Below, piece after piece: positions 3,013 to 50,608 of a stretch of 64,000 nt of DNA. The stretch's first letter is position 1. Each line of letters opens with the position of its first letter. The notes beneath the pieces are model-generated. The model had not been told where the DNA came from. It searched no databases and saw nothing but the letters and a program-made list of their open reading frames with translations. The position numbers and the translations under genes were made by a program. This stretch comes from Arenicellales bacterium (GTDB lineage: Bacteria > Pseudomonadota > Gammaproteobacteria > Arenicellales > JAHEKD01), in NCBI GenBank assembly GCA_028284225.1, contig JANQSD010000011.1, forward strand, positions 196,333-260,332, written 5' to 3'.

Positions 3013-4095
3013 ATGACCGATAATAACGAATTCAAAGAGTTACGCGAAAAGATTGATGTTATTGATCAACAGATCCAGGATTTGATTAACAGGCGTGTTG
3101 AACACGCCGTTGATATCGCCAAGATTAAGCAAAAATCACAAAACGCTGAGTTTTATAAACCTGATCGCGAAGCTCAAGTATTGCGCGAAGTCATTAACCG
3201 TAATCAAGGCCCGATGCCCGATGAAGAAATGGCACGTGTATTTCGGGAGATTATGTCAGCCACTTTATCAGTTGAGTCCCAAATCAAGGTTGCTGCATTA
3301 GGCCCGATTGGTACGTATACGCAAACAGCCGCGCAGAAACATTTTGGTAAATCCGCTGAAATTATTCTCAAGCCAACCATAGAGGAAGTATTCCGGGCGG
3401 TGCAAACACATGATGCCGATTATGGCGTGGTGCCGGTGGAAAATTCATCTGAAGGTGCGGTAACTCATACTCTTGACCTGATGATGGAAACGCCGTTAAA
3501 AATTTGTGGTGAGGTTGAACTGAGAATTCGTCATTGCCTGTTGAGTCAGGATCAGGATTTATCAAAGGTCATACGTGTTTTTTCACACAGTCAATCGTTG
3601 GCCCAATGTCGGCGCTGGCTCTCGACCCATTTGTCCATGGTAGAAAAAAGGGCCGTTGCCAGTAATGCCGAGGCGGCTGAAAAAGTGTCTCTGGAGACAG
3701 GTACGGCTGCGATTGCCAGTAAATCAGCCGCAGAAGTTTATGGCTTGAATATCCTTGCTGAAGATATTGAAGACAATCCCGGCAACACCACTCGTTTTCT
3801 GTTGATCGGGCATAATGATGTGCCGATTAGTGGCGATGACAAAACCAGCTTGCTAATTGCCGGTAAAAATAAGCCTGGAATCTTATATAAATTATTAGAA
3901 CCGTTTGCGGTTAACGGTCTGGATATGACCCGTATCGAATCCAGGCCGTCACGTACGGGGCTGTGGGAATATGTATTTTTTATCGACATTAAAGGCCATG
4001 CCCAAGACCAGAACATTGCTCAAGTTTTAGGTCAGCTAGAAGAGATTGCAGGCATGTACAAAGTTCTGGGTTCTTACCCCGCCGCAGTTTTATAA
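3013..4095 (+). CDS. pheA: Chorismate mutase/prephenate dehydratase (P-protein)
   Basis: LREKIDVID CM domain, PVENSSEG, NTTRFL, ACT domain with IESRPS. Start placed at MTDNNEF because upstream codons lie in the repeat. Confidence 0.95.
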   Translation: MTDNNEFKELREKIDVIDQQIQDLINRRVEHAVDIAKIKQKSQNAEFYKPDREAQVLREVINRNQGPMPDEEMARVFREIMSATLSVESQIKVAALGPIGTYTQTAAQKHFGKSAEIILKPTIEEVFRAVQTHDADYGVVPVENSSEGAVTHTLDLMMETPLKICGEVELRIRHCLLSQDQDLSKVIRVFSHSQSLAQCRRWLSTHLSMVEKRAVASNAEAAEKVSLETGTAAIASKSAAEVYGLNILAEDIEDNPGNTTRFLLIGHNDVPISGDDKTSLLIAGKNKPGILYKLLEPFAVNGLDMTRIESRPSRTGLWEYVFFIDIKGHAQDQNIAQVLGQLEEIAGMYKVLGSYPAAVL

Positions 4096-5175
4096 GTGTT
4101 TGATCCATACTCAGTGGCGTTGCCCGCAGTGGCGGACTTAAGCCCGTATCAACCCGGCAAACCCCAGGAAGAACTAAAACGTGAACTCGGACTGGACCGA
4201 GTCATAAAACTGGCGTCAAATGAAAACCCGCTCGGTTGTTCGCCGAAAGCATTAGCAGTATTAAAACAGCCGGTTGACCTGGCCCGTTATCCAGATGGTA
4301 ATGCGTACCAATTGAAGCAGGCATTAGCACAAAAACTTAACATTAACAGTGATCAGCTAACTATAGGTAACGGTTCTAGTGAAGTGCTGGAACTGTTAGT
4401 CAAAGCTTTTGTAACTGCCCGGGATAAAGTCGTTATCTCCCAGCATTCGTTCGCCCTTTACTATTTGGCTGCTCAAGCCGTTAATGCTGATATTTGCATT
4501 GTTCCGGCAAGTCATTGGCAACATGATTTAAAGCAAATGTCATCCCTGGCTAATGATGCCAAACTGGTATTTATTGCTAACCCGAATAATCCCACTGGCA
4601 GTTACCATAGTCTTGATTCAATCAGGGTGTTTTTAAATTCGTTGCCAGAATCGGTACTGGTAGTGATTGACGAAGCCTATATTGAGTACGTTACCGAAGA
4701 TGGTTCAGCACTAAGTTTACTGAATGAATTTCCAAACCTGGTGATTACCCGGACTTTTTCAAAAGTGTATGGCTTAGCGGGGCTGCGAATCGGCTATTGT
4801 GTTTCATCAGCACAAATTGCAGATTTATTAAATCGGGTCCGCTTGCCGTTCAATGCTAACACCCAGGCTCAAAACGCCGCGATTGCAGCATTGTTTGATC
4901 AGGAATTCATTGATCAGAGTATTAAGCTGAATCTGCAACAAAAACAAGTGATCTATGATGGCTTTGAACGCTTAAGATTAGACTTTATTGAATCACAGGG
5001 GAATTTTGTTAGTGTTCAAGTGGGTGACGAGCTTGGTGTTTACCAAAGTATGTTGGCGCAAGGCATCATCGTTAGACCGATTGGTAATTACCAAATGCCG
5101 GGATGGCTCAGGTTTACCATTGGGCTTGAGCAAGAAAACCAACAAGCGTTGGCCGCTTTGTCGAAAGCGATATAG
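4096..5175 (+). CDS. hisC: Histidinol-phosphate aminotransferase
   Basis: KLASNENPLG, NPNNPTG, DEAY, RTFSKVYGLAGLRIGY (PLP lysine). Confidence 0.95.
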   Translation: MFDPYSVALPAVADLSPYQPGKPQEELKRELGLDRVIKLASNENPLGCSPKALAVLKQPVDLARYPDGNAYQLKQALAQKLNINSDQLTIGNGSSEVLELLVKAFVTARDKVVISQHSFALYYLAAQAVNADICIVPASHWQHDLKQMSSLANDAKLVFIANPNNPTGSYHSLDSIRVFLNSLPESVLVVIDEAYIEYVTEDGSALSLLNEFPNLVITRTFSKVYGLAGLRIGYCVSSAQIADLLNRVRLPFNANTQAQNAAIAALFDQEFIDQSIKLNLQQKQVIYDGFERLRLDFIESQGNFVSVQVGDELGVYQSMLAQGIIVRPIGNYQMPGWLRFTIGLEQENQQALAALSKAI

Positions 5176-6077: not shown

Positions 6078-7378
6078 TTATTAATTACTTAGTTCAACCG
6101 GGCGGTCGCTTTAGTGGTGAAATTACAGTTCCCGGAGATAAATCGATTTCTCACCGCAGTGTCATTTTCGGGGCGTTATGCGATGGCGTTACCGAGGTCA
6201 GCGGTTTACTCCAGGGTATGGATGTGTTGGCTACAATCCACGCATTTCGTGAAATGGGTGTTTTTATTGATGGTCCGGATGGTGGTCATTTGGTGATTCA
6301 CGGCAATGGTTTGCGCGGCTTGAGTGCTCCGCATGGAAGTCTTGATCTGGGCAATTCAGGCACCAGTATGCGATTACTAACCGGCTTGCTTTCGGCCCAG
6401 CAATTTGACTCGACCCTGGTTGGCGATGAATCGTTAAGCAAACGGCCAATGATGCGGGTGATAAAACCGCTTTCGGCCATGGGCGCCACTATCAATGCCA
6501 GTGCCAACGGCACGCCGCCGGTGCAAATAAGCGGTGGCAGCCAGATAAGCAGCCAGGCATTCAAGCTGGAAATTGCCAGTGCCCAGGTGAAATCGGCGCT
6601 TTTGTTGGCAGGGCTGTATGCCGATTCACCAATCAGTGTAACTGAGCCGGTTAAAACTCGCGATCATACTGAGCGAATGTTAGCGGACATGGGCTGTGAA
6701 ATTGAAACTGCCGATTTGACCATTCGTTTACATCCACCCTCAATGTTGCAAGCCAAGGCGATTAATGTGCCTGCTGATATCTCCTCAGCTGCATTTTTTA
6801 TGGTGGGTGCAAGCATAGCCAGGGATTCAAAGTTACTGATTAAAAACGTCGGGATCAATCCTACCCGAACCGGCGTAATCGAGATTTTGCAGCTGATGGG
6901 TGCAAACATCAACTTACTCAACCCGCGCCAGTCAACAGGAGAACCGGTAGCAGATATTGAAGTCTGTTCCGGTGATTTGCAAGGTATACAAATTCCCGAG
7001 TCCCTGGTTGCCTCGGCCATTGATGAGTTCCCGGTTCTAATGATCGCAGCAGCTTGCGCCAAAGGCCAAACAGTGGTTACCGGCGCCAGAGAATTGCGGG
7101 TAAAGGAAAGTGACCGCATTGCGTCCATGGTTACAGGGCTAAAAGTTTTGGGTATTGATGCCAAAGAACTTGAAGATGGAATGATCGTTGAAGGCGGTCA
7201 GATTCAAGGCGGTGAAGTGGAAAGCTACGACGATCACCGCATATCAATGGCGTTTGCCATGGCTGGGCTGGCGAGCCAGGCACCCATCAAAATTAATGAC
7301 TGCCGAAACGTGGCGACGTCATTTCCGGGGTTTGACCAGTTAGCTGTTCAAGCCGGGTTAAATCTGGAGGTGGTGTAA
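6074..7378 (+). CDS. aroA: EPSP synthase
   Basis: PGDKSISHR, GNSGT, SAQVKSA, RDHTE, ELRVKESDR, DHR. Confidence 0.97.
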   Translation: MIINYLVQPGGRFSGEITVPGDKSISHRSVIFGALCDGVTEVSGLLQGMDVLATIHAFREMGVFIDGPDGGHLVIHGNGLRGLSAPHGSLDLGNSGTSMRLLTGLLSAQQFDSTLVGDESLSKRPMMRVIKPLSAMGATINASANGTPPVQISGGSQISSQAFKLEIASAQVKSALLLAGLYADSPISVTEPVKTRDHTERMLADMGCEIETADLTIRLHPPSMLQAKAINVPADISSAAFFMVGASIARDSKLLIKNVGINPTRTGVIEILQLMGANINLLNPRQSTGEPVADIEVCSGDLQGIQIPESLVASAIDEFPVLMIAAACAKGQTVVTGARELRVKESDRIASMVTGLKVLGIDAKELEDGMIVEGGQIQGGEVESYDDHRISMAFAMAGLASQAPIKINDCRNVATSFPGFDQLAVQAGLNLEVV

Positions 7379-47340: not shown

Positions 47341-47847
47341 ATGACAGACTTAAGAATAGGCACTGGGTTTGATGTGCACGCTTTTGCAGATAAGCGAGAG
47401 CTGATAATCGGCGGGGTTAATATCCCATATGAAAAGGGGTTGGTTGGGCACTCAGATGCCGATGTTTTATTGCATGCTATAAGTGATGCCTTGCTTGGTG
47501 CATTAGCCTTGGGTGATATCGGCAAACATTTTCCGGATACTGATCTGGAATATAAAAACGCCGATAGCCGCGAGTTATTACGACAAGTAAGACAACTCAT
47601 TGATAATAAAGGCTTTGAAGTCACTAACCTGGACAGCACTATTATTGCCCAAGCACCCAAGATGGCTCCTCATATCGATGACATGCGGCAGAATATCGCT
47701 GATGATTTGCAGATAAAAGTCAGCCTAGTCAGTGTAAAGGCCACGACTACAGAAAGATTAGGATTTATTGGTAGGGGTGAGGGGATTGCGAGTCAAGCTA
47801 GTGTTTTGCTTAAACCGAAGCAGTATATTGATCCAAGAAATAAATAG
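47341..47847 (+). CDS. ispF: MECDP synthase
   Basis: [34 protein letters not shown]. Confidence 0.97.
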
Positions 47848-47907
47848 CCCTGTTACTTTGTTGGCTCACAAAGTAAGCAAATGAGCTAGCTACTAAAAAA
47901 AATAACT

Positions 47908-47935
47908 CGTCATCCCGGACTTGATCCGGGATCTC
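47908..47935. repeat. REP-like hairpin, outer left flank of the cargo cassette
   Basis: CGTCATCCCGGACTTGATCCGGGATCTC. Confidence 0.75.
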
Positions 47936-47953
47936 CTAAAGACTGTTCGGGCC

Positions 47954-48123
47954 TTGTTACTTTTGTTTTGGCAAAAGTAACCAAAACCATTTACTCCTGA
48001 TCGCAGCCCTTCGGGTTCCCTGCGCTTCTCGGATTATGTCGGCGTTGCGGAACTCGGCTATCGCCTCAAACAGTCCTCGCGCTTGTTGACATAATCCTGC
48101 GATGCTCGGCTGCTATAAGTCGC
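47954..48123 (+). repeat. ~170-bp structured repeat, left copy
   Basis: Starts with hairpin GTTACTTTTG..CAAAAGTAAC; reverse complement aligns along its whole length with 48830-49004. Confidence 0.9.
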
Positions 48124-48308
48124 ACGTACTTAAGTTGAATGTACAGCGATGTACTCTTAAATTTGTTTGAAATCTACCTCTTATTTTACCAACGTAATGC
48201 CGATAAAATAATTTAATCCAAGTTAACAATACTTAAAGATGACTAATGATAATATAAAGAATGATTAATTCTTTTACCTATTAAAAAGTAAATAATCAAT
48301 AAAAAATC

Positions 48309-48740
48309 ATGGAAATTTCAAACTGGATTACACTTGCGACAGGTTTGGTCGCAGGACTGGGTATAGGTTCAGTTATAACTACATTGGTTCAATATTTCTT
48401 AAAGAAACGTTCGTACGCCTTGCAAAGTCAGCGTGAAGATTTAGAAAAAAGATATAAGGTTATAATTTTATTGATGTACGCAGCCGTTGAATATGAAAAA
48501 AGTAAAAAATTTCTGCGGATACATCGTCCTGATTTAAAAAATCAGCAGGATGTTTTCGAGGAGTTAAAAGCTGAATGGTACAACATGATTTTGTTTGCAT
48601 CAGAAAAGACACAACAGGAATTACATTCCTTTATAGAAAATCCTGATATTGAAAACCTGAAAGCTACGGCAATAGCGATGCGAACTGATTTAGGGAGAGG
48701 AAAATTGGACCATATGATTAAAGAACTTACATTTTCCTAA
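48309..48740 (+). CDS. AT-rich hypothetical protein with an N-terminal TM helix (cargo gene)
   Basis: 143-aa ORF, hydrophobic WITLATGLVAGLGIGSVITTLVQYFL then basic KKR and a helical domain. Confidence 0.75.
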   Translation: MEISNWITLATGLVAGLGIGSVITTLVQYFLKKRSYALQSQREDLEKRYKVIILLMYAAVEYEKSKKFLRIHRPDLKNQQDVFEELKAEWYNMILFASEKTQQELHSFIENPDIENLKATAIAMRTDLGRGKLDHMIKELTFS

Positions 48741-48780
48741 CGTCAGGTTCAATCATTCAATAGTTTCCCCAATTTTATCA

Positions 48781-48810
48781 CTAGATTCCGGATCGTTGTC
48801 CGGAATGGCG
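48781..48810. repeat. REP-like hairpin, inverted relative to 47908-47935
   Basis: Reverse complement CGCCATTCCGGACAACGATCCGGAATCTAG resembles CGTCATCCCGGACTTGATCCGGGATCTC. Confidence 0.7.
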
Positions 48811-48829
48811 ACGGTGAGTTTGTGCTCTC

Positions 48830-49004
48830 GCGACTTAAAGCAGCCGAGCATCGCAGAATTATATCGATAAGCGCGAGGACTGTTTGAGCGAGTGAAGCGA
48901 GTGAGTTCCGTAGCGCCGATATAATCCGAGAAGCACAGGGAAGCCGAAGGCCTGCGATCAGGAGAAAACATTTTTGGATACTTTTGATGTCTCAAAAGTA
49001 TCAA
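48830..49004 (-). repeat. ~170-bp structured repeat, right copy (inverted)
   Basis: GCGACTTAAAGCAGCCGAGCATCGCAG...GATACTTTTG..CAAAAGTATCAA, inverted homolog of 47954-48123. Confidence 0.9.
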
Positions 49005-49009
49005 TTCAA

Positions 49010-49038
49010 GAGATCCCTCACATTCGTTCGGGATGACG
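49010..49038. repeat. REP-like half element, outer right flank
   Basis: GAGATCCC...CGGGATGACG, complementary to the CGTCATCCCG and GGGATCTC ends of 47908-47935. Confidence 0.7.
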
Positions 49039-49044
49039 CGAGCG

Positions 49045-50608
<1,564 letters not shown>

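Follow-up and report, generated by a model that had tools for sequence, protein, structure and literature searches.

Repetitive extragenic palindromic (REP) sequences and their inverted doublets (REPINs) are intergenic, non-coding and folded palindromes of ~20–40 nt which occur in hundreds of copies, either as singlets or as doublets of fixed polarity, and which encode no enzyme and are presumed to act as single strands. Mobile insertion cassettes (MICs) and composites of MITEs (miniature inverted-repeat transposable elements), including the integron mobilisation units (IMUs), are likewise transposase-less and have inverted terminal repeats around passenger genes, with short empty forms as well as loaded ones. 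Integron cassettes have one structured, sequence-variable attC element for each small gene, which may be promoterless or an orphan, and in these the stem structure is kept over sequence and the cargo is diverse and includes defence genes. Finally, the bacterial interspersed mosaic elements (BIMEs) of enterobacteria and the neisserial intergenic mosaic elements (NIMEs) are modular mosaics bound to a genus or family, and the minimal mobile elements of Neisseria occupy sites between two conserved genes which hold different genes in each species. We describe here a locus that resembles each of these in part, and which consists of a 143-aa gene lying between two inverted copies of a ~175-nt structured repeat (referred to as arms) in the interval between ispF and smr, within a 64,000-nt stretch of DNA from an Arenicellales bacterium (contig JANQSD010000011.1 of assembly GCA_028284225.1; this whole stretch is referred to as the window).

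The arms share all of the REP and REPIN traits listed above except size and number, and the GTCAT units, which are a REP-like family of their own, are found in physical association with them; in contrast to REPs, however, the arms are 175–190 nt long with four helices and a 29-nt core, number eleven in the genome, and form doublets that enclose genes. The likeness to MICs and MITE composites extends to the inverted repeats, the passengers and the existence of empty and loaded forms, but no parent insertion sequence (IS) or shared transposase was found in ~100 loci, no target-site duplication was seen, and the arms are about ten times longer than the usual ends and contain internal helices that covary, a feature for which double-stranded transposase sites have no need. 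Unlike integron cassettes, the arms are inverted rather than arranged in a direct array, have no adjacent integrase and possess a long conserved core. The arms also look modular in the manner of BIMEs and NIMEs, as hairpin 1 is found alone in Acinetobacter baumannii (92–97% identity over ~36 nt) and GTCAT units occur on either side, and the ispF–smr site is similar to those of the minimal mobile elements, but the arm core occurs in three phyla and the paired architecture is fixed. The locus falls among the passenger-carrying, transposase-less inverted-repeat elements, and every specific family tested fails at least one defining feature. We consider it likely that the paired arms form a non-autonomous slot in which the genes are interchangeable, and that the window locus is one occupied slot.

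The genome to which the window belongs (G000) is 4.09 Mb in size and 96% complete, and was compared with three other species of the genus (G001–G003). Arms were scored with R1, a covariance model built from eight arms of G000 which spans 180 positions with 49 pairs in several helices. The features of the ispF–smr interval are listed below; here and elsewhere, coordinates are positions in the window unless a contig (C1, C6, C14, C18 or C22) or a locus (L and a number) is named.

47341..47847, plus strand: ispF, the conserved left flank, outside the element (open reading frame (ORF) list; orthologues of 69–85% identity in G001–G003).
47853..47876, no strand given: stem-loop like arm hairpin 1, directly after ispF (weak partial R1 match to positions 8–31 with E 0.79, which may be chance).
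47908..47953, plus strand: GTCAT-type REP-like unit with the tail GACTGTTCGGGC, touching the 5' end of the left arm (read from the sequence).
47950..48128, plus strand: left arm, a ~175-nt structured repeat (full-length R1 match, 199 bits), with hairpin 1 outermost and the 3' end toward the cargo.
48129..48308, plus strand: AT-rich leader of the cargo gene (GC content 0.275–0.285).
48309..48740, plus strand: cargo gene, an ORF of 143 aa, with a predicted N-terminal hydrophobic helix and helical bundle.
48784..48813, minus strand: GTCAT-type REP-like hairpin just beyond the inner (3') end of the right arm (read from the sequence).
48825..49008, minus strand: right arm, the inverted copy (full-length R1 match, 187 bits), with a hairpin-1 variant that differs from that of the left arm.
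49010..49038, minus strand: GTCAT-type REP-like hairpin adjoining smr, belonging to the site and not to the cassette (a similar unit has the same position and orientation in G002 and G003).
49045..49575, minus strand: smr, the conserved right flank, outside the element (orthologues adjoin ispF in G001–G003).

The two arms are complementary over two segments, one of 102 nt at 82% (47954–48055 and 48903–49004) and one of 59 nt at 92% (48065–48123 and 48830–48888), and with the full-length R1 matches this bears out the original prediction, made by a model from the DNA letters, that inverted repeats of ~170 bp lie at these places. It had also described an AT-rich segment with one 143-aa ORF, accompanied by GTCAT hairpins and lacking a transposase or integrase, and this was confirmed as well: the GC content is 0.275–0.36 in 200-nt steps across 48100–48799 compared with about 0.44–0.52 in the flanking genes, and the ORF list contains no transposase or integrase between ispF and smr. 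The sigma-70-like sites in the leader (48185–48212 and 48223–48250) are weak, with three found against a mean of 3.1 in shuffled sequences.

The arms are a real family with a conserved multi-helix fold. Searches with blastn and R1 identified eleven arms plus three weak fragments in G000, and the left arm in the window is 92% identical to the arm at C22:116186–116354 (blastn). In a MAFFT alignment of eight G000 arms, which was not fitted to the model, 13 of the 49 predicted pairs have compensatory changes. Two larger sets were aligned by fitting to R1, a procedure which favours structure. Among 37 arms from the taxonomic order, 89.8% of cells were paired compared with 39.5–47.7% when the partners were slid, double changes were present in 44 of the 49 pairs, and the covariation score was 0.467 compared with 0.053–0.081. 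The corresponding values for 74 arms from other genomes, none of which had been used to build the model, were 89.7% compared with 42.3–50.1%, 43 of the 49 pairs, and 0.441 compared with 0.054–0.074, and in both sets the observed values were reached by none of 500 shuffles. One stem of 10–11 bp has had both sides replaced jointly (GGATTATGTCG/CGACATAATCC, ATCTGAAACGG/CCGTTTCAGAT or GATTAAGTC/GACTTAATC) while the surrounding sequence remains constant in the arm alignment. The best-conserved part of the arm is the nearly invariant 29-nt core, in which GCTGCGGAACTCG and CTCARACAGTCCTCGC are separated by 3–10 variable bases; as the variable stretch differs in length between arms (9, 5, 7, 8, 11 or 6 bases), the arm is not coding. 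No match to Rfam 15 was found at E ≤ 1 in the window between 47000 and 50000, and in six further arm loci from four lineages the sole match at E ≤ 0.1 was to the transfer-messenger RNA (tmRNA) beside one arm.

Individual hairpins vary between arms. Hairpin 2 ends in a loop of three bases, TTC, TGC, TAC or TCC, closed by C–G in 58 of the 74 arms (counted by hand), with stems that vary in length and sequence. A reading of this tip as a cUNCGg tetraloop, and hence as proof of RNA, was dropped because the stems are symmetric around three bases (e.g. CCGC-TTC-GCGG); on the complementary strand the tip is C-GNA-G, a loop type which is exceptionally stable in DNA minihairpins, and this is a hint in favour of ssDNA or of the other strand. 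Insertions are found within the loops of some arms, with additional hairpins of ~70 nt in the apical part of C18_L (L032:1438–1684) and a related ~75-nt insert in hairpin 2 of both C14_a (L034:1323–1566) and C1_b (L033:2116–2361). By eye, three of the four arm pairs of G000 mix two hairpin-1 variants (window 47958–48005 and 48955–49004; the C22a, C14 and C1 arms were also inspected), one having the loop TTTCGG followed by CAAAACCATT and the other the loop TAAACATA followed by CAAAAATGTTT, and in the latter the loop is complementary to bases 5 nt downstream with which it may form a pseudoknot. On this by-eye reading, an arm pair may have distinct left and right ends. The A. baumannii copies of the 36-nt hairpin-1 module include the following AAAACCATTTA and lie in chromosome records (L209:1494–1595 and L210:1995–2077) where different hairpins come next, and the arms look like mosaics of smaller modules common to other repeat families.

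Eight of the eleven G000 arms are arranged as four (+,−) pairs with their 3' ends facing each other, and of the others two are in tandem on C1 and one is a degenerate single arm on C6. The four pairs and the contents of their slots are as follows.

C22:244282–245340, (+,−): window pair, containing the 143-aa gene.
C22:116182–118299, (+,−): C22a pair, containing a 522-aa DUF6119 / TIGR04141 protein.
C18:77438–81751, (+,−): C18 pair, containing an SH3 protein, a DUF2971 protein matching PADLOC PDC-S31, and a Shedu SduA nuclease (PADLOC E 1.6e-112).
C14:86323–86949, (+,−): C14 pair, enclosing 202 nt and geneless.

The same arrangement is found in other species, and among Proteobacteria the arms form (+,−) pairs of fixed polarity. 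An R1 search of 80 outside loci gave 109 matches, with at least two arms at 27 loci, and by hand count there were adjacent (+,−) pairs in 25 of the 80, (−,+) pairs in none and same-strand copies in two. Fifteen of these 25 pairs have gaps of 60–271 nt and are empty, the empty units being ~0.45–0.7 kb overall, and the other ten have gaps of 0.8–3.4 kb and are filled. The filled slots contain a McrBC-like pair, a RelA/SpoT-like protein matching PDC-S33 (E 3e-104), a DUF4357 protein matching PDC-S14 (E 5e-102), a match to PDC-S67 (E 2e-56), an 8xMP membrane protein, an IS with its own short ends, a REP-associated tyrosine transposase (RAYT) with its own REPs, and several family-less proteins. When three slots from G000 and one from G003 are added to these ten there are 14 gene-bearing slots, five of which have a PADLOC match. 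The slots hold one to three unrelated accessory genes, several of which are anti-phage genes, and the neighbours on the outer side of the arms are ordinary housekeeping genes. The tandem (+,+) arms on C1 (C1:119738–121371; L033) follow a DUF1820 gene and the second of them is degenerate; beyond these lie a 209-aa protein with a weak match to the uracil-DNA glycosylase (UDG) superfamily (E 1.6e-4, which misses the cut-off) and then a 112-aa membrane-like ORF, and no closing arm was found for them in G000.

Comparison of orthologous sites indicates that both arms and contents come and go. R1 found no arm in the ispF–smr intervals of G001–G003, and these contain, respectively, a LON-domain gene, a different 175-aa gene between GTCAT units, and 473 bp with GTCAT units only and no ORF of at least 60 aa; the interval varies among the four species of the genus, including those that have no arms there. 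Outside the interval in these species we also noted, by eye, a 295-aa ORF resembling an IS110 transposase upstream of ispF at the place of ispD in G002 (L037:238–1125, minus strand) and a 107-aa ORF resembling a small GIY-YIG-type nuclease between ispF and ispD in G003 (L036:2158–2481, plus strand), the latter being absent from the window. The site of the C14 pair is armless in G002, where the same two convergent genes are separated by a 240-nt spacer, and G003 has other genes there. In G003 the orthologues of the TetR (89% identity) and DUF2852 (68%) genes of the C18 neighbourhood are found beside an arm with different cargo, a 205-aa family-less protein. This divergent TetR / DUF2852 pair is in opposite order relative to the arm in the two genomes (C18:81575–83272 (L032) in G000 and L069:17830–19318 in G003), and a 28-nt fragment of an arm 3' end lies beyond the pair in G000 (C18:83245–83272); the change in order could be an inversion between inverted arms.

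A second genome, G080, has two pair units at unrelated sites in which the arms differ at only a few positions and the centres at many, and this combination of near-identical arms and divergent centres points to fast turnover of the centre. One of these units is housed in the SpoU–erpA spacer, which is 818 bp long compared with 95 bp in G148 and 77 bp in G030. Each unit (L084:6600–6690 and 7210–7280; L085:4030–4115 and 4640–4740) has inverted arrays of a ~22-nt repeat at either side, with three copies at the left and three to five at the right, and the copy number differs between the two loci. These repeats may be protein-binding sites, and no such arrays flank the arms of G000. Decayed copies of the arm are represented by the C6 arm, C1_b and a copy in G002 which scores 31 bits.

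The arms have a wide but uneven distribution. A scan for the core pattern in one genome per species gave at least 120 stretches, and among the matches listed are Gallionellaceae, Sulfuricella, Methylotenera, Rhodocyclaceae, several Pseudomonadales, Arenicellales, many Nitrospirales, several Bacteroidales and one actinobacterial record. Named isolates with arms are Sulfuricella sp. T08 (L128), Zhongshania aquatica BJYM1 (L150), Litorivivens lipolytica CECT 8654 (L158) and Uliginosibacterium sp. (L119). The arm core is the same in the named records of three phyla (Pseudomonadota, Nitrospirota and Bacteroidota), yet it was found in only 3 of 401 genomes of a class-wide sample, and R1 matched 17 of 151 genomes of the order sample; such a patchy spread fits mobility. 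A phage or plasmid origin of the arms was rejected, as there was one core match amongst the IMG/VR viral contigs and in the plasmid and phage collections the 36-nt hairpin-1 module alone gave matches, in chromosome records of A. baumannii. In a Porphyromonadaceae record (L165:3029–3426, plus strand, and 3641–3822, minus strand) we noted a single arm which faces the tmRNA gene with its inner side and lies ~215 nt downstream of that gene; tmRNA genes are classical island integration sites.

The 143-aa protein had been called an orphan, but 78 proteins match it at E ≤ 0.001, of which one is the window's own and the other 77 share 43–68% identity with it. Two of these 77 homologues carry taxon names (a Blastocatellia and a Pseudomonadota metagenome-assembled genome, MAG), and the nearest protein-atlas clusters are unnamed and mostly from Bacteroidota. 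In the AlphaFold2 (AF2) model (mean pLDDT 86), an N-terminal helix of ~58 residues, of which the hydrophobic start is part, leads into a helical bundle. The protein has no match in Pfam, PADLOC or NCBIfam and no fold match at E ≤ 0.001 in PDB or BFVD, and in 25 metagenome loci its homologues have no conserved neighbour. As judged from these homologues, the cargo is a stand-alone passenger of a widespread family, and by analogy with the company kept in other slots a role in defence would be a reasonable guess.

The GTCAT hairpins are a REP-like family separate from the arms and resident at the site. A scan of G000 for GTCAT followed by a perfect hairpin gave 115 matches, chance ones included, and by hand reading about 14 of 25 pattern matches were units with the GACTGTTCGGGC tail. 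Units abut four arm 5' ends and follow four arm 3' ends (including those of C18_R, C1_a and C1_b), and they also bracket the ispF–smr interval in G002 and G003; as both of these intervals are armless, the units are markers of a hotspot at this site and do not belong to the cassette.

The original prediction of a gene-capture cassette is retained in part. Its idea of paired structured repeats agrees with the four (+,−) pairs made by eight of the eleven arms; copies are not random singles, and none of the relatives has the same ORF at this site without the repeats, as their intervals are empty (G003) or hold other genes (G001 and G002). The suggestion of interchangeable cargo is also borne out by slots that contain Shedu SduA, TIGR04141 and McrBC-like proteins, PDC-S31 and PDC-S14/S33/S67 matches, an IS, a RAYT or almost nothing. 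Capture in the stricter sense of a cargo that travels with its repeats is not upheld, as no arm was found beside homologues of the cargo in any of 45 metagenome loci within the DNA fetched. The inclusion of the GTCAT hairpins in the cassette had to be given up, since the hairpin on the smr side occurs at the same place in armless sister species, and mobilisation by a REPIN/RAYT system fares no better, with no PF01797 protein in G000 and none listed for G080.

It is also likely that the centre of a slot is a permissive landing pad on which foreign genes settle and are swapped for one another, and that the 143-aa gene is one such passenger. The arms themselves would work as folded single strands, either single-stranded DNA (ssDNA) or RNA, and be recognised by a structure-specific enzyme encoded elsewhere, following the logic of REP singlets and REPIN doublets, although the arms do not belong to that family; this would account for the retention of the fold across phyla and the decay of single copies. 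Turnover of the cargo would most likely use the arms as portable homology, and because the arms are inverted, recombination between them flips the cargo and does not delete it. We hold this combination of recognition in trans and exchange through arm homology to be plausible, with a likelihood that falls somewhat short of even. Neither the unit nor its immediate surroundings encode a recombinase. The search for the enzyme included the clustering of 993 inner-side ORFs from ~100 loci, in which no protein was recurrent except for spurious ORFs over partner arms. G000 has no Y1_Tnp (PF01797) protein, in a search where controls scored in 6 of 14 cases, and no IS110 transposase; it encodes one reverse transcriptase and 11 tyrosine recombinases (PF00589), none of which is near any arm. 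DDE transposases found near arms in L101 and L075 were rejected as an autonomous parent, as they are unrelated and one has its own short ends. No replication-strand bias could be seen, with 25 of 45 arms on the G-rich strand; the skew over 8 kb is too noisy to be informative, as the coding majority is also on that strand in only 25 of 45.

Several other explanations were weighed against this. An RNA function is suggested by the base pairs themselves, as G–U pairs exceed A–C pairs by 200 to 99 in the 74 arms on the strand with the UNC rather than the GNA loop, and by 99 to 66 in a second count on the strand read from the outside inward, although in both cases the alignment was fitted to the model of that strand and this biases the count; C–G / U–G / U–A series are also seen at several pairs on the strand read in this direction, and the excess fits an RNA read from outside inward. 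The arms could then be cis-acting RNA structures at both entrances of an islet, produced by read-through from the genes next to them (or from the cargo, if the other strand is read), which act as insulators or form or protect 3' ends, insert and neighbours then leaving each other undisturbed, with mobility a secondary matter of homologous recombination. We found no conserved promoter at 107 arms (~0 bits from −70 to −15, with no fixed −10 hexamer) and terminator-like sites downstream in the sense direction at 6 of 106 arms compared with 7–14 of 106 controls, so that arms, if transcribed, would be parts of longer read-through transcripts; and C14_a, C14_b, C22a_L and C1_a each start a few bases past the stop codon of a co-oriented gene. 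That the arms of G080 are far more alike than the centre would also suit a function in place. Arms are sense to the upstream gene in 37 of the 55 cases where this is an ORF of at least 120 aa (p 0.014), but this bias was discarded as it falls to 24 of 38, which is not significant, when loci with a hidden partner arm are removed. No terminator features were found, the polarity of the arms is kept in several pairs where one or both of the outer genes are not convergent (L140, L114, L111, L135, L084 and L086), and the patchy spread across phyla and the decay of single copies are left unexplained. We regard this explanation as rather unlikely. The G–U excess, the fold and core conserved across phyla, and the single copies in Nitrospirales and Bacteroidales records would equally suit free-standing small RNA (sRNA) genes, each arm being one gene of a multi-copy family and the islets between them coincidental. 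Independent genes would not be expected to give 25 (+,−) pairs and no (−,+) pair, however, nor to lack both a promoter at fixed distance and a terminator, and copies are absent from sister orthologous sites and individually decay; we think it very improbable that arms are genes of this sort.

Two further explanations are based on DNA transposition. The inverted ends of fixed polarity and the empty forms of ~0.45–0.7 kb would be expected if the arms were the decaying long ends of an extinct or unsampled transposon or large MITE, with genes found between them only because the repeats mark tolerant places and with no present function for the bracket itself; an IS has landed in one centre, the ispF–smr interval varies in all four species without regard to arms, and the ~22-nt inverted arrays of G080 resemble transposase-binding sites. 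Ends bound as double-stranded DNA (dsDNA), on the other hand, are not expected to keep their helices through full replacement of the sequence, as in GGATTATGTCG/CGACATAATCC compared with ATCTGAAACGG/CCGTTTCAGAT; neither a parent element nor a shared transposase is present in ~100 loci, no target-site duplication was seen, and within G080 the arms are much better conserved than the centre. Such an origin is improbable in our judgement. A strict REPIN-type cassette, in which a RAYT (Y1 HUH) nuclease mobilises the GTCAT hairpins together with the 170-nt repeats, is favoured by the contacts of GTCAT units with four arm 5' and four arm 3' ends, by a RAYT which lies between two arms in a Pseudomonadales MAG (L160:3001–4047; NF047646, 86 bits with a cut-off of 80), and by the presence of PF01797 in 13 of 17 arm-bearing compared with 50 of 134 arm-free genomes of the order sample. 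However, this co-occurrence follows family membership, Y1 being present regardless of arms in 19 of 20 genomes of f5, 6 of 7 of f9 and 3 of 3 of f1, PF01797 is absent from G000 despite its eleven arms, and G080, G071 and G129 are not listed among the genomes with a match. In L160 the RAYT has 33-nt inverted repeats of its own on either side (91% complementary), which lie well within the arms, and it resembles a passenger. As GTCAT units bracket the armless interval in G002 and G003, and the arms are multi-helix elements of 175 nt in eleven copies and not short palindromes in hundreds, we give this version of the mechanism hardly any credence.

A non-autonomous slot with interchangeable genes and paired, structured arms is the reading we prefer, and a number of observations weigh against it. 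The arms in Nitrospirales and Bacteroidales records are almost all single, so that the pair is not obligatory, and no trans-acting enzyme was identified in the searches described above. The G–U excess of 200 to 99, with the bias noted, is another such observation. The arms of the C14 pair abut both stop codons and replace the whole of the G002 spacer, which resembles allelic replacement and not simple insertion, and the near-identical arms of G080 could reflect selection in place for a host function. Related species retain orthologous arms, as G000 and G002 both have one after the DUF1820 gene and G079 and G069 both have one between tldD and pmbA, which means that movement is rare. On inspection, no target-site duplication is visible at any junction of the window, C22a, C14, C18 or G080 pairs; the sister-species sites have diverged too far to place these junctions exactly, or, among those for G080, C14 and C22a, have other contents.

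At a more general level, it is possible, and we propose this tentatively, that the arms define a class of gene-slot elements in at least three phyla, in which a new structured motif, in most cases a convergent pair, creates and disperses small landing pads among housekeeping genes where accessory and often anti-phage genes are lodged and exchanged without a recombinase of their own. Literature searches with the core sequence matched only unrelated primers, and keyword searches gave no such element; supplements and repeat libraries of the ISfinder type were outside their scope, and the result does not show that the element is unpublished. If the class is real, it would add a third mode of single-gene packaging to those of integron cassettes and transposons, and could explain part of the defence islets that lack a mobile-element hallmark. 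Many small defence islets lie between core genes with neither integrase nor transposase, which raises the question of the route by which they arrive; defence islands in E. coli are the subject of PMC10121019. The ~175-nt arm, with its core of GCTGCGGAACTCG, 3–10 bases and CTCARACAGTCCTCGC, provides a searchable marker for one such route, and in Proteobacteria arms with this marker bracket slots containing Shedu, McrBC-like and TIGR04141 proteins as well as several PADLOC candidates. Should the arms be recognised as folded strands by a host or trans-acting enzyme, they would represent a new type of non-autonomous mobile element with a testable structure and a new RNA or ssDNA motif family for libraries of the Rfam type, and would allow the mining of single-gene defence candidates found between arms, including the 143-aa protein described here.

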